The notes below the pieces were generated by a model that worked only from the letters and a program-made list of their open reading frames with translations, ran no database searches and was not told the origin of the DNA. From NCBI GenBank assembly GCA_944389515.1, contig CALXMQ010000003.1, positions 44,762-108,761 of the forward strand: a DNA stretch of 64,000 nucleotides, given 5' to 3'. The position numbers and the translations under genes are program-made. The first letter of the stretch is position 1; each line of letters begins with the position of its first letter. Source of the stretch: an uncultured Alphaproteobacteria bacterium (GTDB lineage Bacteria > Pseudomonadota > Alphaproteobacteria > Rs-D84). This document shows, one piece after another, positions 19,776 through 40,636 of the stretch.

Positions 19776-22700
19776 TTCAACCTGTGCTTTAATCACGCTT
19801 GGTATTATCGGCCGTTGTGTTCGATGCGGTTACGGGTAAAATTTTGATTTTTGTTTCATATTTTGAACATAAATTGCGTTACATCACTTTCAACCCTGGG
19901 TTGAATACGAGACGCATTTTACAAGCATTTTTTTCAACATTTCAAAACTATACACGATGCAAAATACGCAAATCGATTGCTGTATTTATGCGCATTTTGA
20001 TTACAAACATGCAAAAGCGAAACAATTCAACCATTGGTTGAATTGGGTCTTGATTTTATGGCATACATCACTTTGTATTATCGACATGTGATTACAAACG
20101 ATATAAATTGATTGTGTACGATACAATATTCAACCTATGATTGAATTCTGTTTTCATTTTATATGCATGACATCACGTTACAGCAGAAACATTTAATAAA
20201 CCAGAAAGTTTTCTGTCATACAATATATACGCAAATCGTTTTAGAATTAGTCGTCTAAATCAACCACAGATTGTGTTTGATATAAAATCAAGGCCATGCC
20301 CCATAAATGGGCAAGCGATTAAACCCACATCCCCCAATATCATGGTTGTGGGATGACCGGTTGGTAAACACGTCGGCGGTGCCCAAAACACCAACCTGTA
20401 CTTTTTACAAAGGCAATGCATAAAGACCAAAAGTTATTCGCACTGTTATACATCTTGGAATTCATGAATACAACAGTGACATTGCCCTAAATACCACGGG
20501 ACAGCACAACCCCAGGTTGAACAAAAATAATTTTACACCGCCATCCTGTGATGTTCAGATTTTTTCCGTGATGCCCGAAATGTAATAAGCGGCCAGGTTG
20601 CAAAATCCGATATCCTTATCCCATATAATCGTCAGAAAATTCGATTTATTCGGCGATTGTCGTTTCACCAGATTTTGCATCAACATAGACAAGAATTTTA
20701 TTATTTAATCAACCTGCGATTGAATCAGGCCTTAAAAAAATATCGTAACAAATATTTTGTTTATTGTTATCACAGTTTTGCTTAGTTGGCAGGCGCCCCG
20801 AAACAATTCAACCACCGATTGAATTGTTTACACTATTCTATTTTTCGCACAATGTTAAAAGCAGCCGCCACGTTCAACCCTGTGTCGAATTTTAATAATA
20901 ATTCTAGTATCTTTCTCGTACAACCTGCTCGCAGACACCCGGTACAGCGTATTTAATTCAACCACGGGTTGTATTTAACCCCAAAAACATATTGTTTTCA
21001 TGTACTTATCAAAAAATGCCGGACGTAAAAATTATAAATCAGTGGCATTGGCTTACTTGTTTTATAACTGGGACGTTTTAAGGTGCGCGATTTGCCCGGT
21101 TTTGTATAAAAAAGAGACATTACGCCAAAAATCCCAGAACGTTTCAACCATAGGCTGAATAAAAAAATAACTCTAATATTTTTACACGACTTTATTTATT
21201 GGGTTTGTATTCAACCCATGGTTGAATTGCCACATGTAACAACATGATGTTTGCACACTATAACAATTTATAATCGAACACCTGCACTAATTCAACCTAT
21301 ACTAGATTTACGCGTTAAAAAATTCCGGCTCTCATGGAACGCCCGAATATTTTCGCATAACTTTGCATAAAAACGTGACAACCGATAGACAATAAAAAAT
21401 CTGCCATTTTGATTCAGAAATTATCGAACTGGGCACAGATTAGCCCCCCCTTTTTTTCATCAACAGAGCCACAAAAAATAACCCATGCGATGAATTTGTT
21501 GAATAATATTACAGTCTGTATCACCAACAGAGAAAGCATCCAAATTCAACATGTTTACTATGGGATATTTACATGTAATTTGTTCTGTTGTGGCGGCAAA
21601 CCCAACAACTTACGATTGAACTTTTGTAATAAATCAACCTGTATTAGAACTGCCGGCTAAACGCCCTACTCTTGCAACACACAAACACATTATAGCACGC
21701 GACAAAAACACCACTGTCGCAACCTGTGGTTGAATCGTACGTTGTTTTCTATTATTCGTAGGTTGAAAATATGTTTTTACACAACCTATGATTGAGTGCA
21801 TGGCCACATTTTTACACAAAATACATCATAATAAACATCTTTCTGCAACAACAAAACAGGTACCAAATTCAACCATAAGTTGCACAAACAAAACAATTCT
21901 ATTATTTCCACCGACTGCATAAATTCAACCCATGGTTGAACATTTTACTAAAATCACGTAACATACAAACGCACATTGTAATAAATACATTTTTGTATCG
22001 GCAGAAAGAGTCCACCAAATTCAACCAATGGTTGAATTTACGTTGTCTTTCTTATTTACAACAGGACACAAACGGTCACAATGCGCTAAATTCAACCCAC
22101 GGTTGAATACACGGCTTTAATCCTGCACAACACAAAAGCAGCCGATGGCAAAACCGCATAATCCGATACTCACACTATCATACATAACAATCTTGATTTG
22201 TATGAGTGGTTATGATGCCCTAAGACACACTATCAACCAAAACAAGAACACTTTTACTATTTCAACCTGTGATTGAATTACGCTTCGAATAAATGCACAA
22301 AATTTATAAAGTTTACCAAAAAAAAGAACGCGACATTTATTTCGGATACTGATTATACAAATAGAAATAATTATGTTGCAGATTGGTATGTAAATTGTGT
22401 TCGACGAGGAAATATAAAAAGTATGGCATCAGCAATCAAATTAAAAATAATGAATGGTAATGAAGCGTTGGACTGGGAACGTTTGTACCAAGACTATTAC
22501 CACTATTCATGTGATTTTAAGCATGTGAATTGGCAAAAACACTGTATGTCTACAGATACAAATTGTGCCAAGGATATGGCCACACAAATTATAAATGTGT
22601 CAAATATGTACTTTTGTTTTATAGCCAGGACATTTTAGGGTGCGATTTACCCGATTTTTGTATAAAAAGAGACTTTGCGCTAAAATTTCCAGAATGCTTC

Positions 22701-22862
22701 AACCATAGGTTGAATTAGAAAAACACTTCTAATATTGTCACCAACTTTATTTATTGGGCTCATATTCAACCTGTGATTGAATCACTGCATATAATAATAT
22801 AATGTTAGCGCGACCTAACAACTAATAGTCGAATACACATAATAGTTCAACCTATGATAGAT
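19776..22862. repeat. Cluster of about 25 dispersed palindromes TTCAACC-N3-G(G/A)TTGAA
   Basis: Perfect copies start at 19889, 20026, 21210, 21924, 22020, 22091, 22698. Near-perfect or degenerate copies at 19776, 20129, 20259, 20505, 20708, 20807, 20873, 20957, 21143, 21291, 21604, 21633, 21718, 21780, 21868, 22261, 22765, 22846. Confidence 0.93.
21059..21325 (+). repeat. Diverged ~270 bp direct repeat, copy 1
   Basis: Aligns by eye with 22615-22882, with three palindromes at matching positions. Confidence 0.85.
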
Positions 22863-26495: not shown

Positions 26496-29400
26496 TTACA
26501 TACTGGTCAAAAATGCTAAATCAGGTGAACAAATTATCCCCAAGCCTTTATCGCTGGTATAGCGCCCTTCCCTGAAATCTATACCACGTGATTTCAGTTT
26601 TTCGCGCAACATACGCCATGTTTCTTGTTCGCCAACGCGGTTCATATCATCCAGTAAAATAACAAATGAAGCATCCAAATTATCTACGATATCCAGAATT
26701 TCTGGGCGTGAGTAATGGTCACTGCCACGTGGGCCATCAATCAGCACCAAATTAAATTTTGTTTTTCCGATGGCATCTGAAAACCCATGATACGTTCTGG
26801 ATTCGTATGGTGGGACAATTTGCACATTTACTGCATCTAATATAGTTGTATAATCAGGTGCATCAGGCATTTGCCGGGCAAAGAAATTCAACCAATCTGG
26901 ATTATTTTCACAAATCATCAATTTTGCGCCCGTGGCACGCGCATATTGTATGGTCAATTTTGACGATTGCCCCAGTCCGCATTCCAGTATGCTGGTGGGA
27001 CGCATTTCATCCAAAACACGATACAATACGTACAGCACAATATAAGACACCGCCCAACGCCCAGGCGACACACTTTTGTTATTCAGCCATGAACTGTTTG
27101 ATATCGTATCATGATAAACATGCGCCCAATATTGTTCAGAATCACGCAAAGATAATTCAGATTGATTACGTTGCACTGCGTCGCCAACCGCAGAAACAGC
27201 CGTGGTAATTTCTGAATTTAATGCAGAAATCTGGTCACCCATGCCATGGCGCATGTTATCAACCGCATCAGTCATATTTTTTGATGCAGTGGCCACGGAA
27301 ACATTGACCGCATTACCCATATCTGTAATTTTAGTATTTAGTTCATCGCGTGCATTATCCACAGATTTATGCAATTTTTTATTCAGCAAATTCGCAGAAT
27401 CTTTGACCACCGCATGAATACTGGCGATACGCCCGTCCAGTTGAACAATGCCGCCATGCAACGTTGTGTGTACAGTATCAGACACATTACGTACATTATC
27501 AGTGACATGTTTTTCCAGGCTGTGTGCGATTTTTTTGGATGATTCACGCATAACGTCCGCCATATCCAGCACACTGGCCGTACCATCAGTTACAACATTG
27601 CGGATTTCATCTGAAAATTCAGATATACGCGCCAAAATATTATTTTGCGTTTCTGAATTTGCCGCAATAATCCCAGTTTTCATACCATCCAGTTGCCGTT
27701 GCAATGTATCACAACGACGATTGATATCTGCAACCGCCCCCATAACCGCCGCATGGTTTTGATTTATCAAATCAACCATGTACCGTCGGCTTCGTGCATA
27801 CAGAACTGATTTTAAGTGGCGAAAAAAATATTTGATGTGATGCGCATTAAAACGTTTGTATAACCAAGATATAAATTTTTTTCTTTGAAATGACGGATAC
27901 ATTTTATTCACAATATCAGTCAATTCTGTTTTCTTGTATCTGTATGGTTCTGTTTCAATATCAACAACAACCTGGGCACCATTTTTAACCGGCATTTCAT
28001 ATGTAAATGGTGCACCATGCCATACAGATATTGGTTTTGATAATATTTCACGTCCATCAATACGCACAGAATTATATGTAACCCATAATGGCACGCGTTT
28101 GCCATCAATCATTTTATAAATTCCACGCAATGATAATCGTAATGTTCCATCACCATGTGATGTTATGACAATTTTTTGACGTTTTTGTGATGATTCAACG
28201 ACACTGCCGGTGCCAGATTCATTTTTGAACCAATCTGGTGTGAATACACGCGCACCAGACGCGACGACGTCCACAGTATTTGTTGATGCCCCAAAGTTTT
28301 TAATATCGACACGAAATACGTTCAAACTATTAAATATATTACGGATATTCATTTTATTCAAACGCGCCCGTCGACCCAACATAGATATCATGTAATATGG
28401 GAATAAAGCATATGTTTTTAACATGCTGTACCGTGGCAATTTATAATATTCACCAGTATCAATATTATATGCCCGTTTGGGTAATTTTAACATTTTACCC
28501 AACATCAGGTTTGTCGCGTCTGTATCCCATACCATAGCCCCCGAAGCTGGTGTAAATGTCATTTCACCAAAATATATTGTTCCATCATCTAATTGATAAA
28601 AATCAACACGGACATAATTAAAACCAGCAGATAATTGTTCCGCCAATTTTTTCATTTGCGCCAAAGACTTTGGGCGTGGTGCAACACTGGAATCAAACAT
28701 ATTATTGTTATAAAAACGTTGTTTTTTCCAATCAGGACTATAAAACGCCGTTTTAAGCCCAGTAGAGTTCCGTCCAGACAATAATTGAATATATTCAACT
28801 TTGCCGTTAAAACACCAAAATTTGTAATCATATAAATCATCTATGGTTTTATTTTCCATAAATTTTTCAATCATGATTTTTGGCTGAATTTCACGATAGT
28901 GTAATTCATATCCGTATTTGAACGCAAAATTTAGGTTCATCCAATAATCTAATTTTTTCTTTACATCTGCTAAATCTAACTTTGTTTTATCACGAACAAT
29001 TATATTCCATCCAGATCCGTGATTACATTTAATAACAAATCGTTTTGGTAATTTCGAAAAATCGATATCTTCGAATCTGTCATATACACCCAACAATGGT
29101 ATCAGATATTTATCACCAATTTTTTCGCGCACCCAATCACGCACCAACAATTTGTCTGCAAGACGTGTTTTTATCGGTGTTGAATCATATAATTTTAACC
29201 ATTGAATTTTTTCATTAAATGTTACAGGACGATATAAATTCAGATATTTATTACAACATTTATTATACCAATCTGATAATAATTGTTTATAATCCAAATC
29301 TGCCACAAAGCTTTTGTATAGTGACGTGTGTTTTGCATAATACCACCAATGTCGGGCATATACTAATTCTGGGTGATTCCATGGTTTTATAGCAGAAGTA

Positions 29401-31136
29401 TAATGAACAATCGATATGTTTTGCTTAGATTTTTCCTGTAATGCTTTATACTGGCTTAGTACATTACTGTTACCTATTGCAGATTGCCACATAAAATTCC
29501 AACCACCATCAATATATTTTACATTATCTTTGCATACCATGTTCAAAATATCTTGGTCGGGACATTTAAGTTGTGTATATTTTTCAACCAAATCAAAGCA
29601 TTTTTGTTCAAGATGTAAAGAATTCCATTTATCGACATTTATCAACAAAACGCCCGAATTAAAATAATCATCAGGATTTATACCCATTTTTTGCAAATAA
29701 TTATACATGCTCTGGCCAACATAATTATGAATCGCGGCAATGTAATTGTCACCAATTTGTTCCTGGAAAATATCGGCAACATCACGCAATATAACAATAT
29801 CACAATCTAAATATAACACACGATGCGCATTTGGAAACAAACGTGGTATCAAAATTCTGTAATACATTTCTGTGGAATAATGCGCCTTTGAATATAAGTT
29901 TATTGATTGAATATATTGATTTACATTGATAAATTTTATACTGATGTTTTCTGATTTTACCGACAATATATCATTTTTTGATTTTTGACTTAAACCACTG
30001 TGGAAAACGGCGATATTGTAAAAATAATTTTTATTTGAATTTTCAACCAAACTTTGCAGCGCAACAACCAAGTATTTAGCATAATTATCATTTGTTGCAA
30101 ATACTATGTTATATGCAAATTCTTGTTGCAGCATCTGTATATGCGATTTATCAAATAATTTGGCATATGTATCCAAATGCGAATAAAAATTATCAGGATT
30201 TTTTTGTATTTGATATTTTAATGAATCTTTAATACGATTATAAAAACCATGTTGTAATAATTGTTGGCGTTTTTGTGTCGTTAAAAATCTTTTTAATTCG
30301 TCAAACGCAATGTATATATTCAATGGATTTGATTTTGATAAATTTGCCGTAATTTGATTGCCTGTATTATATCTGTAATGTATAAATTTTTCTTTTATAA
30401 TGGATATTTTCGATGCAACAGCAACAGCCGCATAAGAAAAATAAACATCATTAGCATTTTCAATGCTTTGAAATTTCAAATTATATTTTGAAATCAATTT
30501 CGCATTAAAAATTTTATTCCAGCAATTTGGTGATGTCAGATTGAAAATTTTATCTTGTACATCATCTATATGTATAACACCTGTTTCTGGGACACATAAC
30601 CATCCCATTTCTTTTGTTACGTTATTTTTATAATCAATCATATCACCAGAAAAAATGCATACATCGGATTTATCTTTTTTTAATTTTGCATAACACTGGT
30701 CCAACATATCCAATTCAAAAAAATCGTCGGAATCCAAGAAAGACAAATATTCACCACGGGCAATGGATAAACCGGCATTGCGCGCCACGCCGGCGTGCAA
30801 ATTTTTCTGGCGCAGGACGGTTATACGTTTATCACGACGGGCGTAATCTTTCAAAATATCCAGCGAACTGTCCGTGGAACCATCGTCAACACATATTATT
30901 TCTATGTCTGGTAACGTTTGATTTACAACACTGTCCAAACATTGCGGTAAATATTTTTCAACATTATATACTGGGATTATAACAGACACACGCGGTTTAT
31001 ACGATATTTTGTTCTGTACAATGATTTCTGCGGTTGTATCTGGGTCGCCATCTGCGTTTTTGACAATTATGATATTATTTTTCGTTACCCGTTTATTCTG
31101 TGACTTCACAGTTTTTTTATTCATTTTCTTGGTCAT
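26496..31136 (-). CDS. 1546-aa multidomain glycan synthesis protein: GT2 + GT8 + TupA-like ATP-grasp + beta domain + long helical/coiled-coil + class I SAM methyltransferase-like
   Basis: VSVIIPVYNVEKYL...FLDSDD (GT2); IVFATNDNY, YLDCD, DQDILN, HYTSAIKPW (GT8); TFNEKIQWLK, DYKFWCFNG, YFGEMTFTP (ATP-grasp); ILECGLGQSS, LIDGP, LLDD (MTase). Confidence 0.85.
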   Translation of the reverse strand: MTKKMNKKTVKSQNKRVTKNNIIIVKNADGDPDTTAEIIVQNKISYKPRVSVIIPVYNVEKYLPQCLDSVVNQTLPDIEIICVDDGSTDSSLDILKDYARRDKRITVLRQKNLHAGVARNAGLSIARGEYLSFLDSDDFFELDMLDQCYAKLKKDKSDVCIFSGDMIDYKNNVTKEMGWLCVPETGVIHIDDVQDKIFNLTSPNCWNKIFNAKLISKYNLKFQSIENANDVYFSYAAVAVASKISIIKEKFIHYRYNTGNQITANLSKSNPLNIYIAFDELKRFLTTQKRQQLLQHGFYNRIKDSLKYQIQKNPDNFYSHLDTYAKLFDKSHIQMLQQEFAYNIVFATNDNYAKYLVVALQSLVENSNKNYFYNIAVFHSGLSQKSKNDILSVKSENISIKFINVNQYIQSINLYSKAHYSTEMYYRILIPRLFPNAHRVLYLDCDIVILRDVADIFQEQIGDNYIAAIHNYVGQSMYNYLQKMGINPDDYFNSGVLLINVDKWNSLHLEQKCFDLVEKYTQLKCPDQDILNMVCKDNVKYIDGGWNFMWQSAIGNSNVLSQYKALQEKSKQNISIVHYTSAIKPWNHPELVYARHWWYYAKHTSLYKSFVADLDYKQLLSDWYNKCCNKYLNLYRPVTFNEKIQWLKLYDSTPIKTRLADKLLVRDWVREKIGDKYLIPLLGVYDRFEDIDFSKLPKRFVIKCNHGSGWNIIVRDKTKLDLADVKKKLDYWMNLNFAFKYGYELHYREIQPKIMIEKFMENKTIDDLYDYKFWCFNGKVEYIQLLSGRNSTGLKTAFYSPDWKKQRFYNNNMFDSSVAPRPKSLAQMKKLAEQLSAGFNYVRVDFYQLDDGTIYFGEMTFTPASGAMVWDTDATNLMLGKMLKLPKRAYNIDTGEYYKLPRYSMLKTYALFPYYMISMLGRRARLNKMNIRNIFNSLNVFRVDIKNFGASTNTVDVVASGARVFTPDWFKNESGTGSVVESSQKRQKIVITSHGDGTLRLSLRGIYKMIDGKRVPLWVTYNSVRIDGREILSKPISVWHGAPFTYEMPVKNGAQVVVDIETEPYRYKKTELTDIVNKMYPSFQRKKFISWLYKRFNAHHIKYFFRHLKSVLYARSRRYMVDLINQNHAAVMGAVADINRRCDTLQRQLDGMKTGIIAANSETQNNILARISEFSDEIRNVVTDGTASVLDMADVMRESSKKIAHSLEKHVTDNVRNVSDTVHTTLHGGIVQLDGRIASIHAVVKDSANLLNKKLHKSVDNARDELNTKITDMGNAVNVSVATASKNMTDAVDNMRHGMGDQISALNSEITTAVSAVGDAVQRNQSELSLRDSEQYWAHVYHDTISNSSWLNNKSVSPGRWAVSYIVLYVLYRVLDEMRPTSILECGLGQSSKLTIQYARATGAKLMICENNPDWLNFFARQMPDAPDYTTILDAVNVQIVPPYESRTYHGFSDAIGKTKFNLVLIDGPRGSDHYSRPEILDIVDNLDASFVILLDDMNRVGEQETWRMLREKLKSRGIDFREGRYTSDKGLGIICSPDLAFLTSM

Positions 31137-31168
31137 GACACGTTATTCCCTTGAATATATATGCTGAA

Positions 31169-31636
31169 TTATTTTTGTTTCATCGCCCGGATTTCTGTAC
31201 GCAGGCGTTCGTATTCATCGCGTACGCGGATTGGATATTGAAATGCGTAAACAATACGTTCACCCAAACTGTTGTGTGTGATGGCGTCTGGGGTGGTGCC
31301 GGCGATACCGGATACCGCACGAACATATCGCCCTTCGCGCCAACCAGAATCTATGTAATGCATCAATGGGCATACTTTGGCGACGGCAACATCTGGATTA
31401 TCGGCCAGGTACGCATCCCCATTAAATTTAGGTGATGGATTGCGACCTTCGCGCCAACCGTATTGTACATAATGTGTAATCGGATCTGCCCCAGCGGCGG
31501 CAACATCAGGGTATTTTGATAAATACCATTTTTCATCAAATAATTTTGATTTACGAACCCGGTGATGTAATAAAATACTTTCATATTTTTTACGACCAAT
31601 CAGTCCCAAATGCCGTAATAACTTTATTAAAAACAT
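31169..31636 (-). CDS. Standalone protein made of the glycan-locus repeat WYLxxYPDV...HYxxxGWREGRNPSP
   Basis: FDEKWYLSKYPDVAAAGADPITHYVQYGWREGRNPSPKF followed by a second copy. Confidence 0.7.
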   Translation of the reverse strand: MFLIKLLRHLGLIGRKKYESILLHHRVRKSKLFDEKWYLSKYPDVAAAGADPITHYVQYGWREGRNPSPKFNGDAYLADNPDVAVAKVCPLMHYIDSGWREGRYVRAVSGIAGTTPDAITHNSLGERIVYAFQYPIRVRDEYERLRTEIRAMKQK

Positions 31637-31676
31637 GTCCTGTTCCCTTTGATTTAATCAATTTTTGGCAAACAAT

Positions 31677-31809
31677 CTGACGGAGGTTAAAAATTTCAAA
31701 ACTCAGCCTCCTGACGGAGGTCAGACTGTCTGCCTGTTTTGAACGCTATAATAGTACTAGAAATAAAATCCTAAGCAAGTCATTTTTTTTGAAATCTAAC
31801 CTCCGTCAA
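31677..31809 (-). promoter_or_regulatory. Putative invertible promoter cassette 1 (sites A, B, C with GA core; promoter TTGCTT-16-TACTAT)
   Basis: A 31677-31690 CTGACGGAGGTTAA; B 31711-31724 CTGACGGAGGTCAG; C 31796-31809 inverted (rc TTGACGGAGGTTAG). The -35 (31773-31778) and -10 (31751-31756) lie on the minus strand between B and C. Confidence 0.8.
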
Positions 31810-31850
31810 AATGAAATATTCCATTGTTTTTTCAACAAAAAATGGAATAA

Positions 31851-31880
31851 AAAAATCGCCCCCAATGGGGCGTATTTTTT
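31851..31880. terminator. Terminator after ABC flippase, insulating cassette 1
   Basis: AAAAAATCGCCCC-CAAT-GGGGCGTATTTTTT. Confidence 0.75.
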
Positions 31881-31881
31881 A

Positions 31882-33846
31882 TTATGCGGCACTGGGGGCG
31901 TTGGGCGATGGCGGTGTCGCAGCATTTTGTGGTGCGGCCGGTGCCATAGGCGCGACCCCAGGCTGGGGCGCCGGTGTGGGCGCAATCGCCGGTTTTGGTG
32001 TTGGCTGAGCCGCCGGTTGTTGGGTTGGTTTTGCACCTGTATCTGTGCGACATTTGAACTGCATATCATACAATGTTTTGTATGCGCCGCATTCGTTTTG
32101 CATCAGTTCTTCGTGGGTGCCGGCTTCGACTATTTCGCCCTGGTTTACAACAACAATCTTGGACGCATTACGAATTGTTGACAATCTGTGCGCGATTACA
32201 AACACTGTTTTATCTTGCATCAGGTTTTCAATCGCACGTTGAACAACGGCCTCGGACTTATTATCCAGGGCGGATGTCGCTTCGTCCAGAATTAAAATCG
32301 GCGCGTTTTTCAAAAATGCACGCGCAATGGCAACACGCTGTTTCTGGCCACCAGACAACAATATGCCGCGTTCGCCGATTTGTGTGTCCAATCCATTTTT
32401 CAGACTGTGTATAAAATCATCTAAACATGCCATTTTTACCGCAGTTTGCAATTCTTCTTCGGTGGCATGTTCATTGCCCAGCATGATATTGTCGCGAATT
32501 GTACCAGCAAACAAGAAATTATCTTGGAACACAACGCCGATATTATTACGCAATGATTTTAATGTATAATCGCGGATATCTGTACCATCAACCAATATTG
32601 CCCCAGATGTCGGATCATAAAATCGTGGTAACAAACTGACCAATGTTGTCTTGCCCCCACCAGAATTACCAACCAATGCGATAATTTGCCCCTGGGACAC
32701 AGTTAAATTGATGTTCTTTAAGATTGGTACCCCTTTGTTATATTCAAATGACAGGTTCTTGAATTCTATGACCCGATGCGTCGCAGGCATTTCCCGTGCA
32801 TTTGGACGATCGGCAATCGCAGGTGCCTTGTCCATAATATCAAATACACGTTCAATCGCCATAAATGACATCAATACAGAGTTATAATTTGACCCCAGGC
32901 TTTTCATCGGGTTATACAACATTATCAATGCCGTTAAAAAGGACACAAATCCACCACTGGTGATATAATTATTCAATACCAGGTATGAACCAAACCATAT
33001 CGCCGCACCAATACCAATCGATAAAATTATATGCATAACAGGGGTCAACCAACGGGTCTTTTGCACCATTTTCATTTGCAATTTGAAAACGCCGTCCAGA
33101 ATCGTTTTGAATTTGTTTTGTTGATATTCGCCCAGGTTATACGATGTAATTGTCTTGTTCCCAGAATATGTTTCATTATATGCGGTCATCATGGTCGAAC
33201 TGGCCATAATATTGCTGTCGAATACAGATTGCAGTTTCTTTTTCAATGTCGTCATCGGCAAAAATGCCACAAATAAAATCGTGACGCAAACCGCCGCCAG
33301 TTGCCATGAATTATAAAACAAAACAAATATCAATGATATCGCAGTAAATAATTTCTGAACAAAGTTTTTTAAGTTTGTCAGCAATCCAGCGCACGCCATA
33401 TCTGCGTTATTGTTAAACATCATCAAAATATCGCCAGAATTTCTGCGGTTAAAGAAATTTGTATCAAAACTGAGCATTTTTTTATACAAATCTAGCTTTA
33501 ACAAATTTGTAATTTTTGCCCCAACCCACGTATTCAGATAATTTGCCGCGTATGTCAATGCACCCTGTAATGACGTAAATAAAACAATAACCAATGGAAT
33601 ATACCATGCCGCCTGTAATGATTTATCAATCATCACCAAATCCATATATGGTTTCAGCGACATGGCGATAACACCTTCGAGTGCCCCAATCGGCATCGCC
33701 AATAATATAGATAATAAACCCTGGAACCAGTATGGTTTTACATACGGCCACATACGTTTATAATTTTTAACTATTGCAGTACGCGCCAGTTTATGGGTGC
33801 TGGCTTTCTGTTTATCATCTTGCTTCATCTTTTTTATCCGCATCAT
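31882..33846 (-). CDS. MsbA/PglK-type lipid-linked glycan flippase ABC exporter with Pro/Ala/Gln tail
   Basis: TM domain, GNSGGGKTT, LSGGQKQR, ILDEATSALD; located inside the glycan operon. Confidence 0.88.
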   Translation of the reverse strand: MMRIKKMKQDDKQKASTHKLARTAIVKNYKRMWPYVKPYWFQGLLSILLAMPIGALEGVIAMSLKPYMDLVMIDKSLQAAWYIPLVIVLFTSLQGALTYAANYLNTWVGAKITNLLKLDLYKKMLSFDTNFFNRRNSGDILMMFNNNADMACAGLLTNLKNFVQKLFTAISLIFVLFYNSWQLAAVCVTILFVAFLPMTTLKKKLQSVFDSNIMASSTMMTAYNETYSGNKTITSYNLGEYQQNKFKTILDGVFKLQMKMVQKTRWLTPVMHIILSIGIGAAIWFGSYLVLNNYITSGGFVSFLTALIMLYNPMKSLGSNYNSVLMSFMAIERVFDIMDKAPAIADRPNAREMPATHRVIEFKNLSFEYNKGVPILKNINLTVSQGQIIALVGNSGGGKTTLVSLLPRFYDPTSGAILVDGTDIRDYTLKSLRNNIGVVFQDNFLFAGTIRDNIMLGNEHATEEELQTAVKMACLDDFIHSLKNGLDTQIGERGILLSGGQKQRVAIARAFLKNAPILILDEATSALDNKSEAVVQRAIENLMQDKTVFVIAHRLSTIRNASKIVVVNQGEIVEAGTHEELMQNECGAYKTLYDMQFKCRTDTGAKPTQQPAAQPTPKPAIAPTPAPQPGVAPMAPAAPQNAATPPSPNAPSAA

Positions 33847-33847
33847 T

Positions 33848-34525
33848 TTACATCAATTCATCATTTGTTGATATGTCTGTGTCGTATGTTTGGGGCATGC
33901 CACCATCCATTAAATTCTGTTTAATCCATATACCTATTTTGCGTTTTGTCTGGGCGCCTAAAACACGTTCAACTGTTATTTCGCGTACTGCCATAAATAT
34001 TTTTCTGGAATCTTTTGGTGGTGTATATGGCTGGGTTGCCAGAAATTGCAAAGACAACGTATCGTCTGACATTACCGATGCCGGAATATTGGCCACAAAA
34101 GGCCCGTCATATCCGACACGCCATACAGCAACCTGGATCCCGTTGGCCAAAACAGTTACCTGTTGATACGTGGCGGTATTCGGGTTAAACACCCCAAACG
34201 CATCAACCGTTACACGTAAATCTGTGCCGGCACCATTTGGAATATACAGGTTCAGCACCGATTCCATATTTAATGCACATCTGTGTTCTGGTTCTTGGCC
34301 GCCCCAACCGTCAGATGTTTTAATATATTCCGCACTGTTGCCATCACGTGCAAAAGATATCGGCGTACCTAAAATATATGGTCGAAATTTGTTCTTGTCA
34401 ACAGTTGTGGTGGCAATATCCGACATCATGGCGTTATTATATTGATGACGATATATCATAAATCCCCCACCAACAACCAATGCCACAGCGACAATCACAA
34501 TTAAAAATATCTTCCATTTTTTCAT
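33848..34525 (-). CDS. Membrane-anchored hypothetical protein (beta-sandwich-like)
   Basis: N-terminal TM anchor; GWGGQEPEHRC...VTVLANG pattern seen in glycan-locus accessory domains; coupled to neighbours. Confidence 0.55.
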   Translation of the reverse strand: MKKWKIFLIVIVAVALVVGGGFMIYRHQYNNAMMSDIATTTVDKNKFRPYILGTPISFARDGNSAEYIKTSDGWGGQEPEHRCALNMESVLNLYIPNGAGTDLRVTVDAFGVFNPNTATYQQVTVLANGIQVAVWRVGYDGPFVANIPASVMSDDTLSLQFLATQPYTPPKDSRKIFMAVREITVERVLGAQTKRKIGIWIKQNLMDGGMPQTYDTDISTNDELM

Positions 34526-37500
34526 GATTTTACCTGTTGTTGTTTTTTAGTTTTATTTCGCATATATTTGCATGCAAATAAATAATACGGAAATAACAAA
34601 TATGCCAGTAAAATATTTCCAAGACGTTCACGGCGTACTTCATAAAACACTTCTGGATATCGGGTCAAAACATTTTGTAATTGTTCATCGTTGTAACATT
34701 TTTCCACAGTATTTGTTTTCCACAGGCATTGGCCATCTTGACTGCCGGGGACAAAATTCAATGCAGAAAAACTGTTATTGATAATGTGTATCTTGGTGTG
34801 ATTTTTTACCGCCATTGCCCAAATCCATATATCATCAGCCATTGGGCACAATTCTAAAAATTCAGATTCATTTAATATATTTTTATCCAGACAATGTGGC
34901 GGATACAATACGCCACCAACACCAGTTAGAAAATTATTATACACCGCAGATTCATTTTTGAACGACATTTTCCATGCGTTATACGGTGCGATTTTTCCTT
35001 TATTAAACACAATTCTGTGTGCACGATGACAATGGATAATATTTGGACATTCTGAATATGCGTCCAGCAACAGTTTTAACCAATTTTCTGTATATAAAAT
35101 ATCATCGTCTGCGGTTACCAAAATCGCATCAGGGAATTCGCGCAATGCAGGAATAATCTTTTGAAAACTGCGTAAAGTTTTATCAATCCAATGAATTTCA
35201 AATGTATCATCCAACAAATCTGTCAAGTTACGTGGCAACGAAGGTCGTTTTTTTGGAAATTCTGCCCTGGACAGATATAAAATTATTTTGTCTGGTTTAA
35301 CAGATTGATTTTTCAATGTCTGGATTGTTTGATATACAGAATCGATACGCGCCGGATATGAAGTCACAGATACAACCACAGGATTAGTAATTTTGCATAA
35401 ACGTTCGCCCTTTAACCGCGCGACATCATAATATTCTTTGACATATGTTGGGCGCAATGATTTATGCATACCAGTAAAACGATTTTCATATTTGCCATAC
35501 TTTTCGTAATGCAGCAACGGATTTACCCCAGCACGCGCAACATCTGGGTTATTATATAAATATAATCCAGTATCAAATTTTGGTGACGGATTATATCCAA
35601 CACGCCAACCGGTATCTAGATAATGTTGCGCAGGATTTATATCCATTTGTGCTACATCCGGATACATACGCAAATACCAGCGCCGATTAAAATATCTGGA
35701 ATGCTTGATATATTCTAAATTTGATGAATAATTTTTCTTGTGTTTGAATAATTTTATAAACAGCTGGTTGGCGCGTACATTGGCGTGTTTACGCCATGTG
35801 GTAAAATTATGAATTTTTGCGATTTTCAATCCATGCCCAGCCACCAACAAACCAAATACAGTTTCTAAACTGTGGGCAACGGTACCAACACTGCCGGTTT
35901 TAGAATCTGCACTAAAATCAGATTCTTTGAACGGATATTGTTGAAATGGCAGCAATAAATCTGAACGCACCGCAAACATTGTTCCACATACAAATGGGCA
36001 AGTTGCAAAATATTTTACCCCCATTTTCTGGCATAATTGTTCCGTATTTTTCGCCTGAGACGTTTTTTCTGTATCACCAATTAAATTACCACTGCCGACC
36101 ATGCCGACGCCTTTGCGTTTAATCAAGCGTGACAAACGTTCAAATTGATGACGCGACCCAATCAATGGATTTATTAAATCGTCATGCCATTGCCAACCAT
36201 TGTATATAATCCCGTTTTTTATCCATGGTGTTGCCCTGGCATTTTTAGTATGCATTTTCAGCACAAATATGTAATCAGCCAAAGACACTTGTTGCAGAAC
36301 CAACCAAAACGGATATATGTCATAACCGCGATTTGGCACATGCAGAATATGAACATCTGGTTTGAACTGTTTCAGTTTATATTCTGTGGATGCGACATGT
36401 TCTGTTACCGTAACATATAAATCATAATCACGGGTTATATTTTTTAATCGATGTAAAAACCAATCCAACTGGTCATGATAAAATAAATGCAAATGAACCA
36501 AGATTTTATTTATTTTATACTCTGTTACTGACGGCTTATAATTATGAAAGACCAATTTGAATTCAGGATGAAAACGCAGGCTGATTTTATCAACAGGATA
36601 ATGACGTATTCCATTTTTCCATAATAAATAATTAAAGCTTAGTTGATCACGTCGTGAATAATTTTTAATAAAATCCCACCATTGTTCACATAATTTTTTT
36701 ATTTTTGCATCATTATGACGTCGTAATAAAACATTTGTTTCGTACAACCCATTATGTTCAGGATATTTATCTGCACGCAATATTTGCATTTGTGTATTTA
36801 TCAAATCAGGATTATCTTTGCCATCAGCGATACATGCCGCAGCTTCATCATAAATACAATCGCGATGTGGATGCAATGATATTGCAATTTTATGATTTGC
36901 ACGAATATGCTTGTTTATCAATTTATATATCGCAGGTCCACTGATTTGAATATTACTGTCCATCCAAACAGAATATTTGTATTCCGGGAATAAAATGTGG
37001 GGATGTGTTTTATGCCATCTGGCATTACGAACATTATCTGCCTTAGAAAACGCCAAAGGTTTAATTTGCCACCATAAAAAACGCTTCTTTTTTAATAACT
37101 TTGCATTATCTGTAAATAAAACATAATCAAAATGTGCATCAGGATAAAAATCAGTTATAATTTCATCATATCCACCAGATATACAAGAATAAATCACACA
37201 ATTTATATTTTTTATTGCATCGTGTTTTGCCCAATATTGTATCGATACATTTTCATCAATATATGAACCCGTGGTATAATTATGTTTATGACCGAATTGT
37301 TCATAATGCAATAATGGGTTTATGTGACAATCTTGATAACGTTTCAAATACCCATTTGTATCAAATTTAGGGCTGGGGTTGCGGCCTTCGCGCCAACCAT
37401 ATTGCATATAATGACGCACAGGATTTATCCCGGCGCGTTTAACGTCGGGATACATATTCAAATACCATTTTTTATCAAAATACTTTGATTTTGATATCGT

Positions 37501-37533
37501 TTTATAATCTTTGTCGCGATGCGATATCGTCAT
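34522..37533 (-). CDS. 1003-aa multidomain glycosyltransferase: repeat + DUF616-like + RgpF-like + repeat + GT-A domain
   Basis: VIYSCISGGYD, WMDSNI, SRRDQLSF (DUF616); VHLHLFY, NRGYDIYPF, KMHTK (RgpF); VSVTSYPARI, TADDDILY, TGVGGVLYPP, ADDIW (GT-A). Confidence 0.82.
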   Translation of the reverse strand: MTISHRDKDYKTISKSKYFDKKWYLNMYPDVKRAGINPVRHYMQYGWREGRNPSPKFDTNGYLKRYQDCHINPLLHYEQFGHKHNYTTGSYIDENVSIQYWAKHDAIKNINCVIYSCISGGYDEIITDFYPDAHFDYVLFTDNAKLLKKKRFLWWQIKPLAFSKADNVRNARWHKTHPHILFPEYKYSVWMDSNIQISGPAIYKLINKHIRANHKIAISLHPHRDCIYDEAAACIADGKDNPDLINTQMQILRADKYPEHNGLYETNVLLRRHNDAKIKKLCEQWWDFIKNYSRRDQLSFNYLLWKNGIRHYPVDKISLRFHPEFKLVFHNYKPSVTEYKINKILVHLHLFYHDQLDWFLHRLKNITRDYDLYVTVTEHVASTEYKLKQFKPDVHILHVPNRGYDIYPFWLVLQQVSLADYIFVLKMHTKNARATPWIKNGIIYNGWQWHDDLINPLIGSRHQFERLSRLIKRKGVGMVGSGNLIGDTEKTSQAKNTEQLCQKMGVKYFATCPFVCGTMFAVRSDLLLPFQQYPFKESDFSADSKTGSVGTVAHSLETVFGLLVAGHGLKIAKIHNFTTWRKHANVRANQLFIKLFKHKKNYSSNLEYIKHSRYFNRRWYLRMYPDVAQMDINPAQHYLDTGWRVGYNPSPKFDTGLYLYNNPDVARAGVNPLLHYEKYGKYENRFTGMHKSLRPTYVKEYYDVARLKGERLCKITNPVVVSVTSYPARIDSVYQTIQTLKNQSVKPDKIILYLSRAEFPKKRPSLPRNLTDLLDDTFEIHWIDKTLRSFQKIIPALREFPDAILVTADDDILYTENWLKLLLDAYSECPNIIHCHRAHRIVFNKGKIAPYNAWKMSFKNESAVYNNFLTGVGGVLYPPHCLDKNILNESEFLELCPMADDIWIWAMAVKNHTKIHIINNSFSALNFVPGSQDGQCLWKTNTVEKCYNDEQLQNVLTRYPEVFYEVRRERLGNILLAYLLFPYYLFACKYMRNKTKKQQQVKS

Positions 37534-39906: not shown

Positions 39907-40030
39907 CAAACGGTGGTTAGCCAAATAATAAACTGACGGTGGTCAGATTGTCTGCTTGTTTTGAACAACAACATGGTACTGGAAATAAAATTTATATCAA
40001 GTATTTTTCTTGAATTTTAACCACCGTTAG
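39907..40030 (-). promoter_or_regulatory. Putative invertible promoter cassette 2 (sites A', B', C' with GT core; promoter TTGATA-16-TACCAT)
   Basis: A' 39907-39920 CAAACGGTGGTTAG; B' 39933-39946 CTGACGGTGGTCAG; C' 40017-40030 inverted (rc CTAACGGTGGTTAA). The -35 is at 39995-40000 and the -10 at 39973-39978. Homologous to cassette 1. Confidence 0.8.
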
Positions 40031-40039
40031 ATTGAAAAA

Positions 40040-40636
40040 TTACCCGTTTGTGCGCAAAAAACGTGTTATAGTTGCCGCAGAAACGCGAAAGTTGCGTGCA
40101 ATATACATTTTCGTATAACCTTGGTTCAGCATTTTTATAACCGTTTCATATTTGCCATCCATTTTATGTCGTTTATTGCGACTGCCGAATGCACGCCCCA
40201 GTTTATATCCCTGGGCACGTCGCAATGCCAATGCTTCTTTGGTGCGTTGACTGATTAAATCGCGTTCTATTTCCGCAGATAATCCAAACGCAAATGCCAA
40301 AACCTTGCTTTGTATATTATCCCCCAATTCATATCCGTCTTTGACGGTATATACACGCGCCCCGATATTCATACAATGTTCCAAGATTCGCATTATCATG
40401 AACATCTTGCGCCCCAATCGCGACAGTTCGGAACATATCAATACATCGCCCGATTGTAATCTGCGCAGACATGACCCCAATGCGCGTTTGTTGGGCTCTT
40501 TGGTGCCAGACACGCCAGAATCTTGGATATATTTTTCAATTTGAATGCCCAGTGAACGCGCCTTGGCTTCTATGCCCAACTTTTGATTTTCGCAATCTTG
40601 GTGGTCAGTACTGACCCGTATATAGCCATATACCAT
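40040..40636 (-). CDS. Mpi-family serine recombinase (DNA invertase), 198 aa
   Basis: YGYIRVST catalytic Ser; SELSRLGRxxFMIMxIL..CM and DNIQSKVLAFAFGLSAEIERDLISQRTKEAL as in Bacteroides Mpi; C-terminal HTH; RBS AAGGAGG before ATG 40636. Confidence 0.9.
   Translation of the reverse strand: MVYGYIRVSTDHQDCENQKLGIEAKARSLGIQIEKYIQDSGVSGTKEPNKRALGSCLRRLQSGDVLICSELSRLGRKMFMIMRILEHCMNIGARVYTVKDGYELGDNIQSKVLAFAFGLSAEIERDLISQRTKEALALRRAQGYKLGRAFGSRNKRHKMDGKYETVIKMLNQGYTKMYIARNFRVSAATITRFLRTNG

Follow-up and report, generated by a model that had tools for sequence, protein, structure and literature searches.

A putative three-site promoter switch with four natural arrangements upstream of glycan genes in an uncultured alphaproteobacterium of the order Rs-D84

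To our knowledge, phase-variable glycan promoters driven by Mpi-type enzymes are known mainly from Bacteroidales. In Bacteroides fragilis, a small serine recombinase of the NF009949 family acts on the Mpi capsule promoters, which are short promoter segments with flanking inverted repeats placed before surface-glycan operons at several loci of the genome of this gut bacterium. Each of these switches has two sites, its promoter is of the Bacteroides -33/-7 type, and the invertible segments of B. fragilis measure about 170-230 bp.

The closest precedent for an extra repeat is the B. fragilis large-capsule (EPS) promoter IVp-I, whose inverted repeats are duplicated at one end in strain NCTC 9343 and at both ends in strain YCH46 (PMC3090145). 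The number of repeats between promoter and genes is inversely correlated with transcription, according to the passage of PMC4747536 that cites Chatzidaki-Livanis 2008. ON forms of IVp-I with one, two or three repeats before the genes occur, and the enzyme is a tyrosine recombinase, Tsr19/BF2766.

The invertases Hin, Gin, Cin and Pin combine a serine recombinase with a C-terminal helix-turn-helix, use dyad sites around an asymmetric 2-bp core, and need Fis together with an enhancer to invert segments of 1-4 kb that contain coding sequence or a promoter plus genes. These features also apply to the Min system of plasmid p15B, where one serine invertase is able to work on more than two sites. Serine recombinases make a double-strand cleavage at the central dinucleotide of their sites, followed by a 180-degree rotation. 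R64-type shufflons, in which the tyrosine recombinase Rci shuffles coding segments of pilV, contain several sites of mixed orientation and reach more than two arrangements by sequential inversions.

Here, we analysed a 64,000-nt stretch of DNA (the window, C3:44762-108761) of a 947,067-bp genome in 14 contigs, whose host is most likely a Candidatus Enterousia (order Rs-D84, Alphaproteobacteria). Metagenome-assembled genomes (MAGs) from the gut of humans, chickens, ruminants, horses and rabbits, labelled either as uncultured Alphaproteobacteria or as Candidatus Enterousia, encode orthologues of the recombinase of the window. Enterousia belongs to the order Rs-D84, whose members have genomes under ~1 Mb and a suspected dependence on partners (PMC12306168). 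In the paper collection that was searched, none on inversion or phase variation in Rs-D84 was listed.

A search of the window sequence detected three exact copies of the 10-mer TGACGGAGGT within positions 31677-31809, a region hereafter called switch 1 or cassette 1, and the search of both strands of the whole genome returned the same three only. Since all genome-wide copies lie within 131 bp, chance is no reasonable explanation for them. Each copy belongs to a site composed of an arm, a central GA and a second arm, and the sites delimit two segments as follows.

31678-31687, plus strand: 10-mer TGACGGAGGT of site A, exact match
31712-31721, plus strand: 10-mer TGACGGAGGT of site B, exact match
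31799-31808, minus strand: 10-mer TGACGGAGGT of site C, exact match
31677-31690, plus strand: site A, CTGACG-GA-GGTTAA, central GA at 31683-31684; crossover site of the 119-bp inversion
31711-31724, plus strand: site B, CTGACG-GA-GGTCAG, central GA at 31717-31718; perfect 5-bp dyad around GGAG
31796-31809, minus strand: site C, TTGACG-GA-GGTTAG, centre at 31802-31803; inverted relative to A and B
31688-31711, plus strand: spacer S, 24 bp, separating the cores of A and B
31722-31798, minus strand: segment X, invertible and containing the promoter, 77 bp from core to core, in ON orientation in the window

The centre-to-centre distances are 34 bp for A-B, 85 bp for B-C and 119 bp for A-C. The initial annotation had described A and B as direct repeats 34 bp apart with C inverted, and the exact copies and their spacings agree with it. 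Read in gene orientation, the window has the order C> X> <B S <A, followed by a gene for 155 aa and then by a gene for a 1546-aa glycosyltransferase. A rough common motif, AAT(C/T)T(G/A)AC(C/G), was obtained by reading the 12 half-sites. The sites resemble hix sites, whose half-sites end in ..AACC, as do half-sites here. Between site C and the terminator-like hairpin described below lies an AT-rich palindrome (31817-31849), whose arms of 16 nt (TATTCCATTGTTTTTT / AACAAAAAATGGAATA) enclose a loop of 1 nt and which has no counterpart in cassette 2.

Cassette 2 is a paralogous three-site switch located in the same window, upstream of an RgpF-like gene. This gene is the first of a run of glycan genes whose last member is the ABC transporter gene that borders switch 1.

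39907-40030, plus strand: cassette 2, three-site switch paralogous to cassette 1
39907-39920: site A' of cassette 2, central GT
39933-39946: site B' of cassette 2, central GT
40017-40030: site C' of cassette 2, central GT
Within cassette 2, minus strand: promoter TTGATA-16-TACCAT

The two cassettes share 82% column identity over an alignment of ~190 columns and have the same three-site layout. In cassette 2 the core is ACG-GT-GGT at all three sites, with distances of 26 bp (A'-B', the offset already given in the initial annotation and confirmed by the site coordinates), 84 bp (B'-C') and 110 bp (A'-C'). The left arm of A' is CAAACG instead of CTGACG or CTAACG. A whole-genome search found no third cassette of this kind.

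The promoter, the hairpin and the genes around switch 1 are the following.

31773-31778, minus strand: -35 element TTGCTT, facing the glycan genes in the window
31751-31756, minus strand: -10 element TACTAT, facing the glycan genes in the window
31846-31883, no strand assigned: bidirectional terminator-like hairpin just past the stop codon of the ABC transporter gene
31169-31636, minus strand: first gene under switch 1, 155 aa, with switch 1 upstream
26496-31136, minus strand: second gene under switch 1, 1546 aa, in which GT2, GT8 and TupA-like ATP-grasp domains are accompanied by a helical region

On the minus strand, both cassettes contain a -35 hexamer (TTGCTT or TTGATA), a 16-bp gap and a -10 hexamer (TACTAT or TACCAT), preceded by an A-tract. 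The pattern TTGnTn-16-TAnnnT is kept in diverged cassettes of other species, in which TTGATT-16 is followed by TACAAT, TATACT, TAATAT or TATTAT. A plus-strand candidate, TTGAAC-N19-TAAAAT, was rejected because, unlike the minus-strand element, it is not conserved in the diverged cassettes. Given that the minus-strand element is conserved and the plus-strand match is not, the promoters of both cassettes, as found in the window, face their glycan genes.

To the right of switch 1 stand the hairpin and then the 3' end of the ABC transporter gene. The hairpin has a stem with 6 GC pairs (31857-31872) and T-runs on both sides. An insulating terminator had been proposed near 31851-31880, and as a sequence feature it is present, with a terminator score on both strands. 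Promoter 1, once reversed, would face this bidirectional hairpin, which would stop its transcripts away from the glycan genes; for promoter 2, reversal would put the 3' end of the recombinase gene in front of it.

The 155-aa protein has no Pfam or NCBIfam match, and a Pfam scan of most of the downstream genes identified no UpxY/UpxZ-type gene. Strains of one species differ in their glycan locus, as seen when L024 and L135-L143 are compared with window positions 26496-37533. The large glycosyltransferase upstream of a 225-aa gene has 1003, 977 or 1091 aa, with GT4/GT1 domains in the 1091-aa form; in L024, a 1142-aa form replaces the 1546-aa enzyme, with ~900 differences in 3.4 kb; and the ABC transporter has 654 or 648 aa depending on the strain. 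Elsewhere in the window, at 19776-22862, a ~3-kb non-coding tract adjoining a tRNA gene contains about two dozen TTCAACC-NNN-GGTTGAA palindromes at variable spacing.

To see which arrangements exist in nature, independent assemblies were chosen by their encoding exactly identical neighbouring proteins, and the switch was parsed in each. Cassette 1 was resolved in 22 distinct contigs of the species, the window included, and these fell into four arrangements.

ON-1, C> X> <B S <A: the window arrangement; 11 contigs (the window, L014, L015, L016, L018, L019, L020, L025, L136, L138, L151)
OFF-1, C> <X <B S <A: BxC flip of 85 bp; 1 contig (L140)
OFF-2, C> <S B> <X <A: AxC flip of 119 bp; 7 contigs (L022, L024, L137, L139, L141, L142, L143)
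ON-2, C> <S B> X> <A: spacer inverted and upstream, promoter facing the genes; 3 contigs (L013, L017, L021)

All junctions in the 22 contigs are base-exact, as exchange within the 10-bp core predicts, and the spacer S lies downstream of the promoter in some contigs and, in inverted orientation, upstream of it in the others. The initial annotation had considered both the BxC (85 bp) and the AxC (119 bp) inversions to be geometrically allowed, and the OFF-1 and OFF-2 contigs indicate that both are used. Its further suggestion, that sequential flips move the spacer upstream and so produce two ON and two OFF states, is matched by the presence of all four among the contigs. Because ON-2 and OFF-2 arise only through strand exchange at A, this site is a crossover site, and an accessory or autoregulatory function, offered as the alternative, is ruled out as its sole role by the same contigs. 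The left arm of A and the right arm of B are alike over 15 nt, which makes the hybrid site of ON-2 an almost perfect palindrome of 34 bp. When JGI metagenome contigs were scanned for the exact pattern of the C-flank junction, no match was obtained.

In cassette 2, the X segment was observed in both orientations, with 5 contigs ON and 13 OFF; use of site A' or movement of the spacer was seen in none of the 18 resolved contigs of this species. The orthologous cassette of a sister species has the same three-site layout; the recombinases of the two species are 87% identical. All four states were recovered there among 11 contigs (8 OFF-1, 1 ON-1, 1 OFF-2 and 1 ON-2), and use of the third site is thus not peculiar to one locus. 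The CAAACG arm occurs in the recombinase-proximal site of the sister species, yet all three sites are used there.

Among the surroundings of 69 recombinase orthologues of other species, a convincing three-site layout was found only in the sister species. Of 328 genomes of the order, 2 contain the three-site pattern with the exact core. With the 191-bp cassette as query, a BLAST-type search of 60 related genomes returned chance-level matches only, which indicates that the cassette sequence is species-specific.

We regard switch 1 as, very probably, a promoter inverton in which three crossover sites are functional and which is operated by a small serine invertase of the Mpi family. Recombination of C with B would flip the 85-bp promoter segment X, while recombination of C with A would flip 119 bp, that is X, B and S together, after which the newly opposed sites would permit the next flip. 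An 85-bp flip would lead from ON-1 to OFF-1 and from ON-2 to OFF-2, and a 119-bp flip from OFF-1 to ON-2 and from OFF-2 back to ON-1. Since the promoter is turned round by every single inversion, the four arrangements make up a cycle. The leader of ON-1 contains two sites and S; that of ON-2 contains one hybrid site, with the promoter 34 bp nearer to the gene and S upstream of it. Because the direct repeats A and B stand only 34 bp from each other, excision of a 34-bp circle is presumably sterically excluded, which would keep the direct repeat stable.

One candidate enzyme is encoded next to cassette 2.

40040-40636, minus strand: 198-aa Mpi-family serine recombinase with Resolvase and HTH_7 domains; stop codon 9 bp from C'

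Along its full length, this protein matches NF009949 ('master DNA invertase Mpi family') with 255.6-255.8 bits and E = 3e-76, just below the curated cut-off of 272 bits. Its closest solved structure is the Gin invertase, and the alignment to Gin includes the YIRVST, LxRLGR and ERxLIxxRT blocks with the catalytic serine and the conserved arginines. A second Mpi-family gene, located elsewhere in the genome (C1:60550-61140), scores 305 bits, above the 272-bit cut-off. Both Mpi-like proteins read ELSRLGR, with Ser replacing the conserved Asp of LDRLGR in Gin. The genome contains three further resolvase-domain genes besides the two Mpi-family genes; one resolvase-domain gene, C8:46486-46970, runs off the end of contig C8. 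Two tyrosine recombinases were found, both Xer-like and both outside the window. From these comparisons, the enzyme of switch 1 is likely to be a serine invertase of the Mpi family.

By analogy with the chemistry of serine recombinases, strand exchange would take place at the central GA or GT of the sites, and the asymmetry of this dinucleotide would give each site its polarity. Recombination between a GA site of cassette 1 and a GT site of cassette 2 should give no ligated recombinants and would spare the operon between the cassettes from inversion; among ~11 contigs that span both cassettes, which are 8.3 kb apart, no inter-cassette rearrangement was seen. No Fis-type HTH_8 domain was detected anywhere in the genome and 85 bp leaves no room for a remote enhancer, hence the reaction must differ from the Hin/Gin paradigm. 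Several points count against our explanation: 85 bp is very short for the synapsis of two sites by a serine recombinase, just one OFF-1 contig represents that state of cassette 1, site A' of cassette 2 was used in none of the resolved contigs of this species, the adjacent recombinase stays just below the Mpi cut-off whereas its paralogue exceeds it, and the leader folds offer no clear reason for an unequal output of ON-1 and ON-2.

Compared with the described systems, the enzyme appears to belong to or to border the Mpi family, and the system would work like the Mpi-driven capsule promoters of Bacteroides. Both have a small serine recombinase that matches the NF009949 family (here, the adjacent enzyme scores below the curated cut-off and its paralogue above it), short promoter segments with flanking inverted repeats before surface-glycan genes, more than one locus per genome and a gut habitat. 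The Bacteroides repeat core, approximately ARACGTWCGT, and the cores ACG-GA-GGT and ACG-GT-GGT look alike in their ACG-NW-SGT form. In contrast to the Bacteroidales promoters, the switches described here belong to a reduced-genome alphaproteobacterium, have sigma-70 -35/-10 type promoters, carry three sites each, invert only 84-119 bp, include one recombinase gene physically joined to a cassette, and have no UpxY/UpxZ-type gene among most of the downstream genes. With IVp-I, switch 1 shares the surface-polysaccharide target and ON forms that differ in repeat number (two sites in ON-1, one in ON-2). It differs in its phylum, in its candidate serine recombinase and in that the whole cycle of four states has been documented in natural populations. 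With Hin, Gin, Cin and Pin it shares the enzyme architecture and dyad sites around a 2-bp core, but neither the kilobase-sized segments nor the Fis and enhancer requirement of these systems. The term 'mini-shufflon', used for switch 1 in the initial annotation, holds as an analogy only, since a promoter and a 24-bp spacer, all non-coding, are moved instead of coding segments, and the likely enzyme is a serine and not a tyrosine recombinase.

What the third site contributes is less clear than its use. The main alternative, which we regard as only slightly improbable, is that site A is competent for recombination without any phenotypic role, as a duplicated half-switch that is carried along, with ON-1 and ON-2, and likewise OFF-1 and OFF-2, functionally equivalent. 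The predicted folds of the ON-1 and ON-2 leaders are consistent with this, as they contain the same 15-bp stem and show no clear terminator difference. So are the lack of conservation of S between the cassettes, the scarcity of the layout (1 of 69 loci of other species) and of this core (2 of 328 genomes), and the absence of A' use from the contigs of cassette 2. Against neutrality, the third site is retained in both paralogous cassettes and in the sister species, where it is used; moreover, the inverse correlation of repeat number with transcription stated for the B. fragilis large-capsule promoter in the passage of PMC4747536 citing Chatzidaki-Livanis 2008 would argue for an effect. By analogy with that promoter, ON-1 may have a lower output than ON-2, a suggestion that we make tentatively. 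More doubtful still is the full scheme of a programmed four-state cycle that would give graded glycan output (off, low, high), driven by a Fis-independent serine invertase at 85 bp, with GA/GT as a one-base barcode. A leader attenuator, with a B/S hairpin and U-run in ON-1 that would be lost in ON-2, was also considered but found no support, as the same dominant 15-bp stem appears in both folds and a natural S variant, GAAGG, weakens the small hairpin.

The identity of the acting enzyme also has an alternative. Rather than the adjacent 198-aa recombinase, the distant paralogue C1:60550-61140 could act globally, as Mpi does in Bacteroides. Its score of 305 bits lies above the Mpi cut-off, compared with 255.8 for the adjacent gene, no recognisable cassette is visible directly downstream of it, and switch 1 is in any case 8.3 kb from the adjacent recombinase gene. 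However, orthologues of the adjacent gene directly abut an inverted-repeat cassette across Rs-D84 genomes, and many contigs end ~40 bp or less from the stop codon of these orthologues. We consider it rather unlikely that the distant paralogue acts in place of the adjacent enzyme; both may act. Such ends were found in 8 of 80 contigs with the orthologous recombinase from related Rs-D84 MAGs (L053, L063, L067, L078, L088, L089, L105 and L111), suggesting that adjacent switches commonly break assemblies of this lineage. The C1:60550-61140 recombinase may also act on distant sites, the two switches of the window included.

The arrangements could in principle be old, fixed rearrangements that distinguish strains, with a switch that is inactive now. 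That each assembled contig has one arrangement and that strains of the species are ~1% apart would fit such a history. Nevertheless, ON-2 and ON-1 contigs show no difference over 3,400 nt of downstream flank, and the window and L144, separated by 4 SNPs in ~9.8 kb upstream, have cassette 2 ON in one and OFF in the other. States are scattered across strain backgrounds that differ by ~1%, and the recombinase gene is intact and sequence-identical in many assemblies. Moreover, contigs stop at precisely the base from which the alternatives differ: four of them (L027, L028, L031 and L133) end 2 nt past core C, at 'TA', the last bases common to the X> and <S continuations. L152 ends directly after C-<S-B, L020 and L021 begin at a core, three contigs begin at core B' of cassette 2, and the N-gaps of scaffolds L012 and L142 span just a switch. 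We interpret these breaks and gaps as indirect evidence, short of proof, for mixed populations in the sequenced samples, and consider a switch that has ceased to operate very improbable. Natural variation across contigs thus supports the interpretation of cassette 1 as a real four-state genetic switch.

That A, B and C are instead operators of a transcription factor or RNA elements (CCUCC/GGAGG pairing), with the variant contigs as assembly artefacts, has a negligible probability: short hairpin-plus-T-run matches do overlap B and B' on the minus strand, but the core is identical within a cassette and different between cassettes, as befits crossover sites and not a shared regulator, a 10-12-bp repeat is below the usual k-mer sizes of assemblers so that misjoins are not expected, the same exact junctions recur across apparently different pipelines (judged by record names), Logan contigs and many samples, and the variant contigs of this species and of the sister species contradict it.

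Taken together, the multi-repeat feature was already known from B. fragilis, but with a tyrosine recombinase. New features are the lineage of the host, the shortness of the inverted segments, the cassette-specific crossover dinucleotide, and a three-site serine-recombinase layout for which all four states are documented in nature. One extra 14-bp site yields four arrangements from ~130 bp of DNA, and the 85- and 119-bp inversions bear on how sites are brought into synapsis without Fis or an enhancer. Standard inverton finders, which expect two repeats, would probably mis-score a three-site switch. Should the programmed four-state cycle prove true, it would be a compact multi-level switch in a bacterium of less than 1 Mb that is probably partner- or host-dependent, and would represent a new design principle for invertons as well as a small part reusable in synthetic circuits. 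More generally, the Mpi enzyme family would be running switches in an uncultured alphaproteobacterial gut lineage with genomes below 1 Mb and a suspected dependence on partners (PMC12306168).
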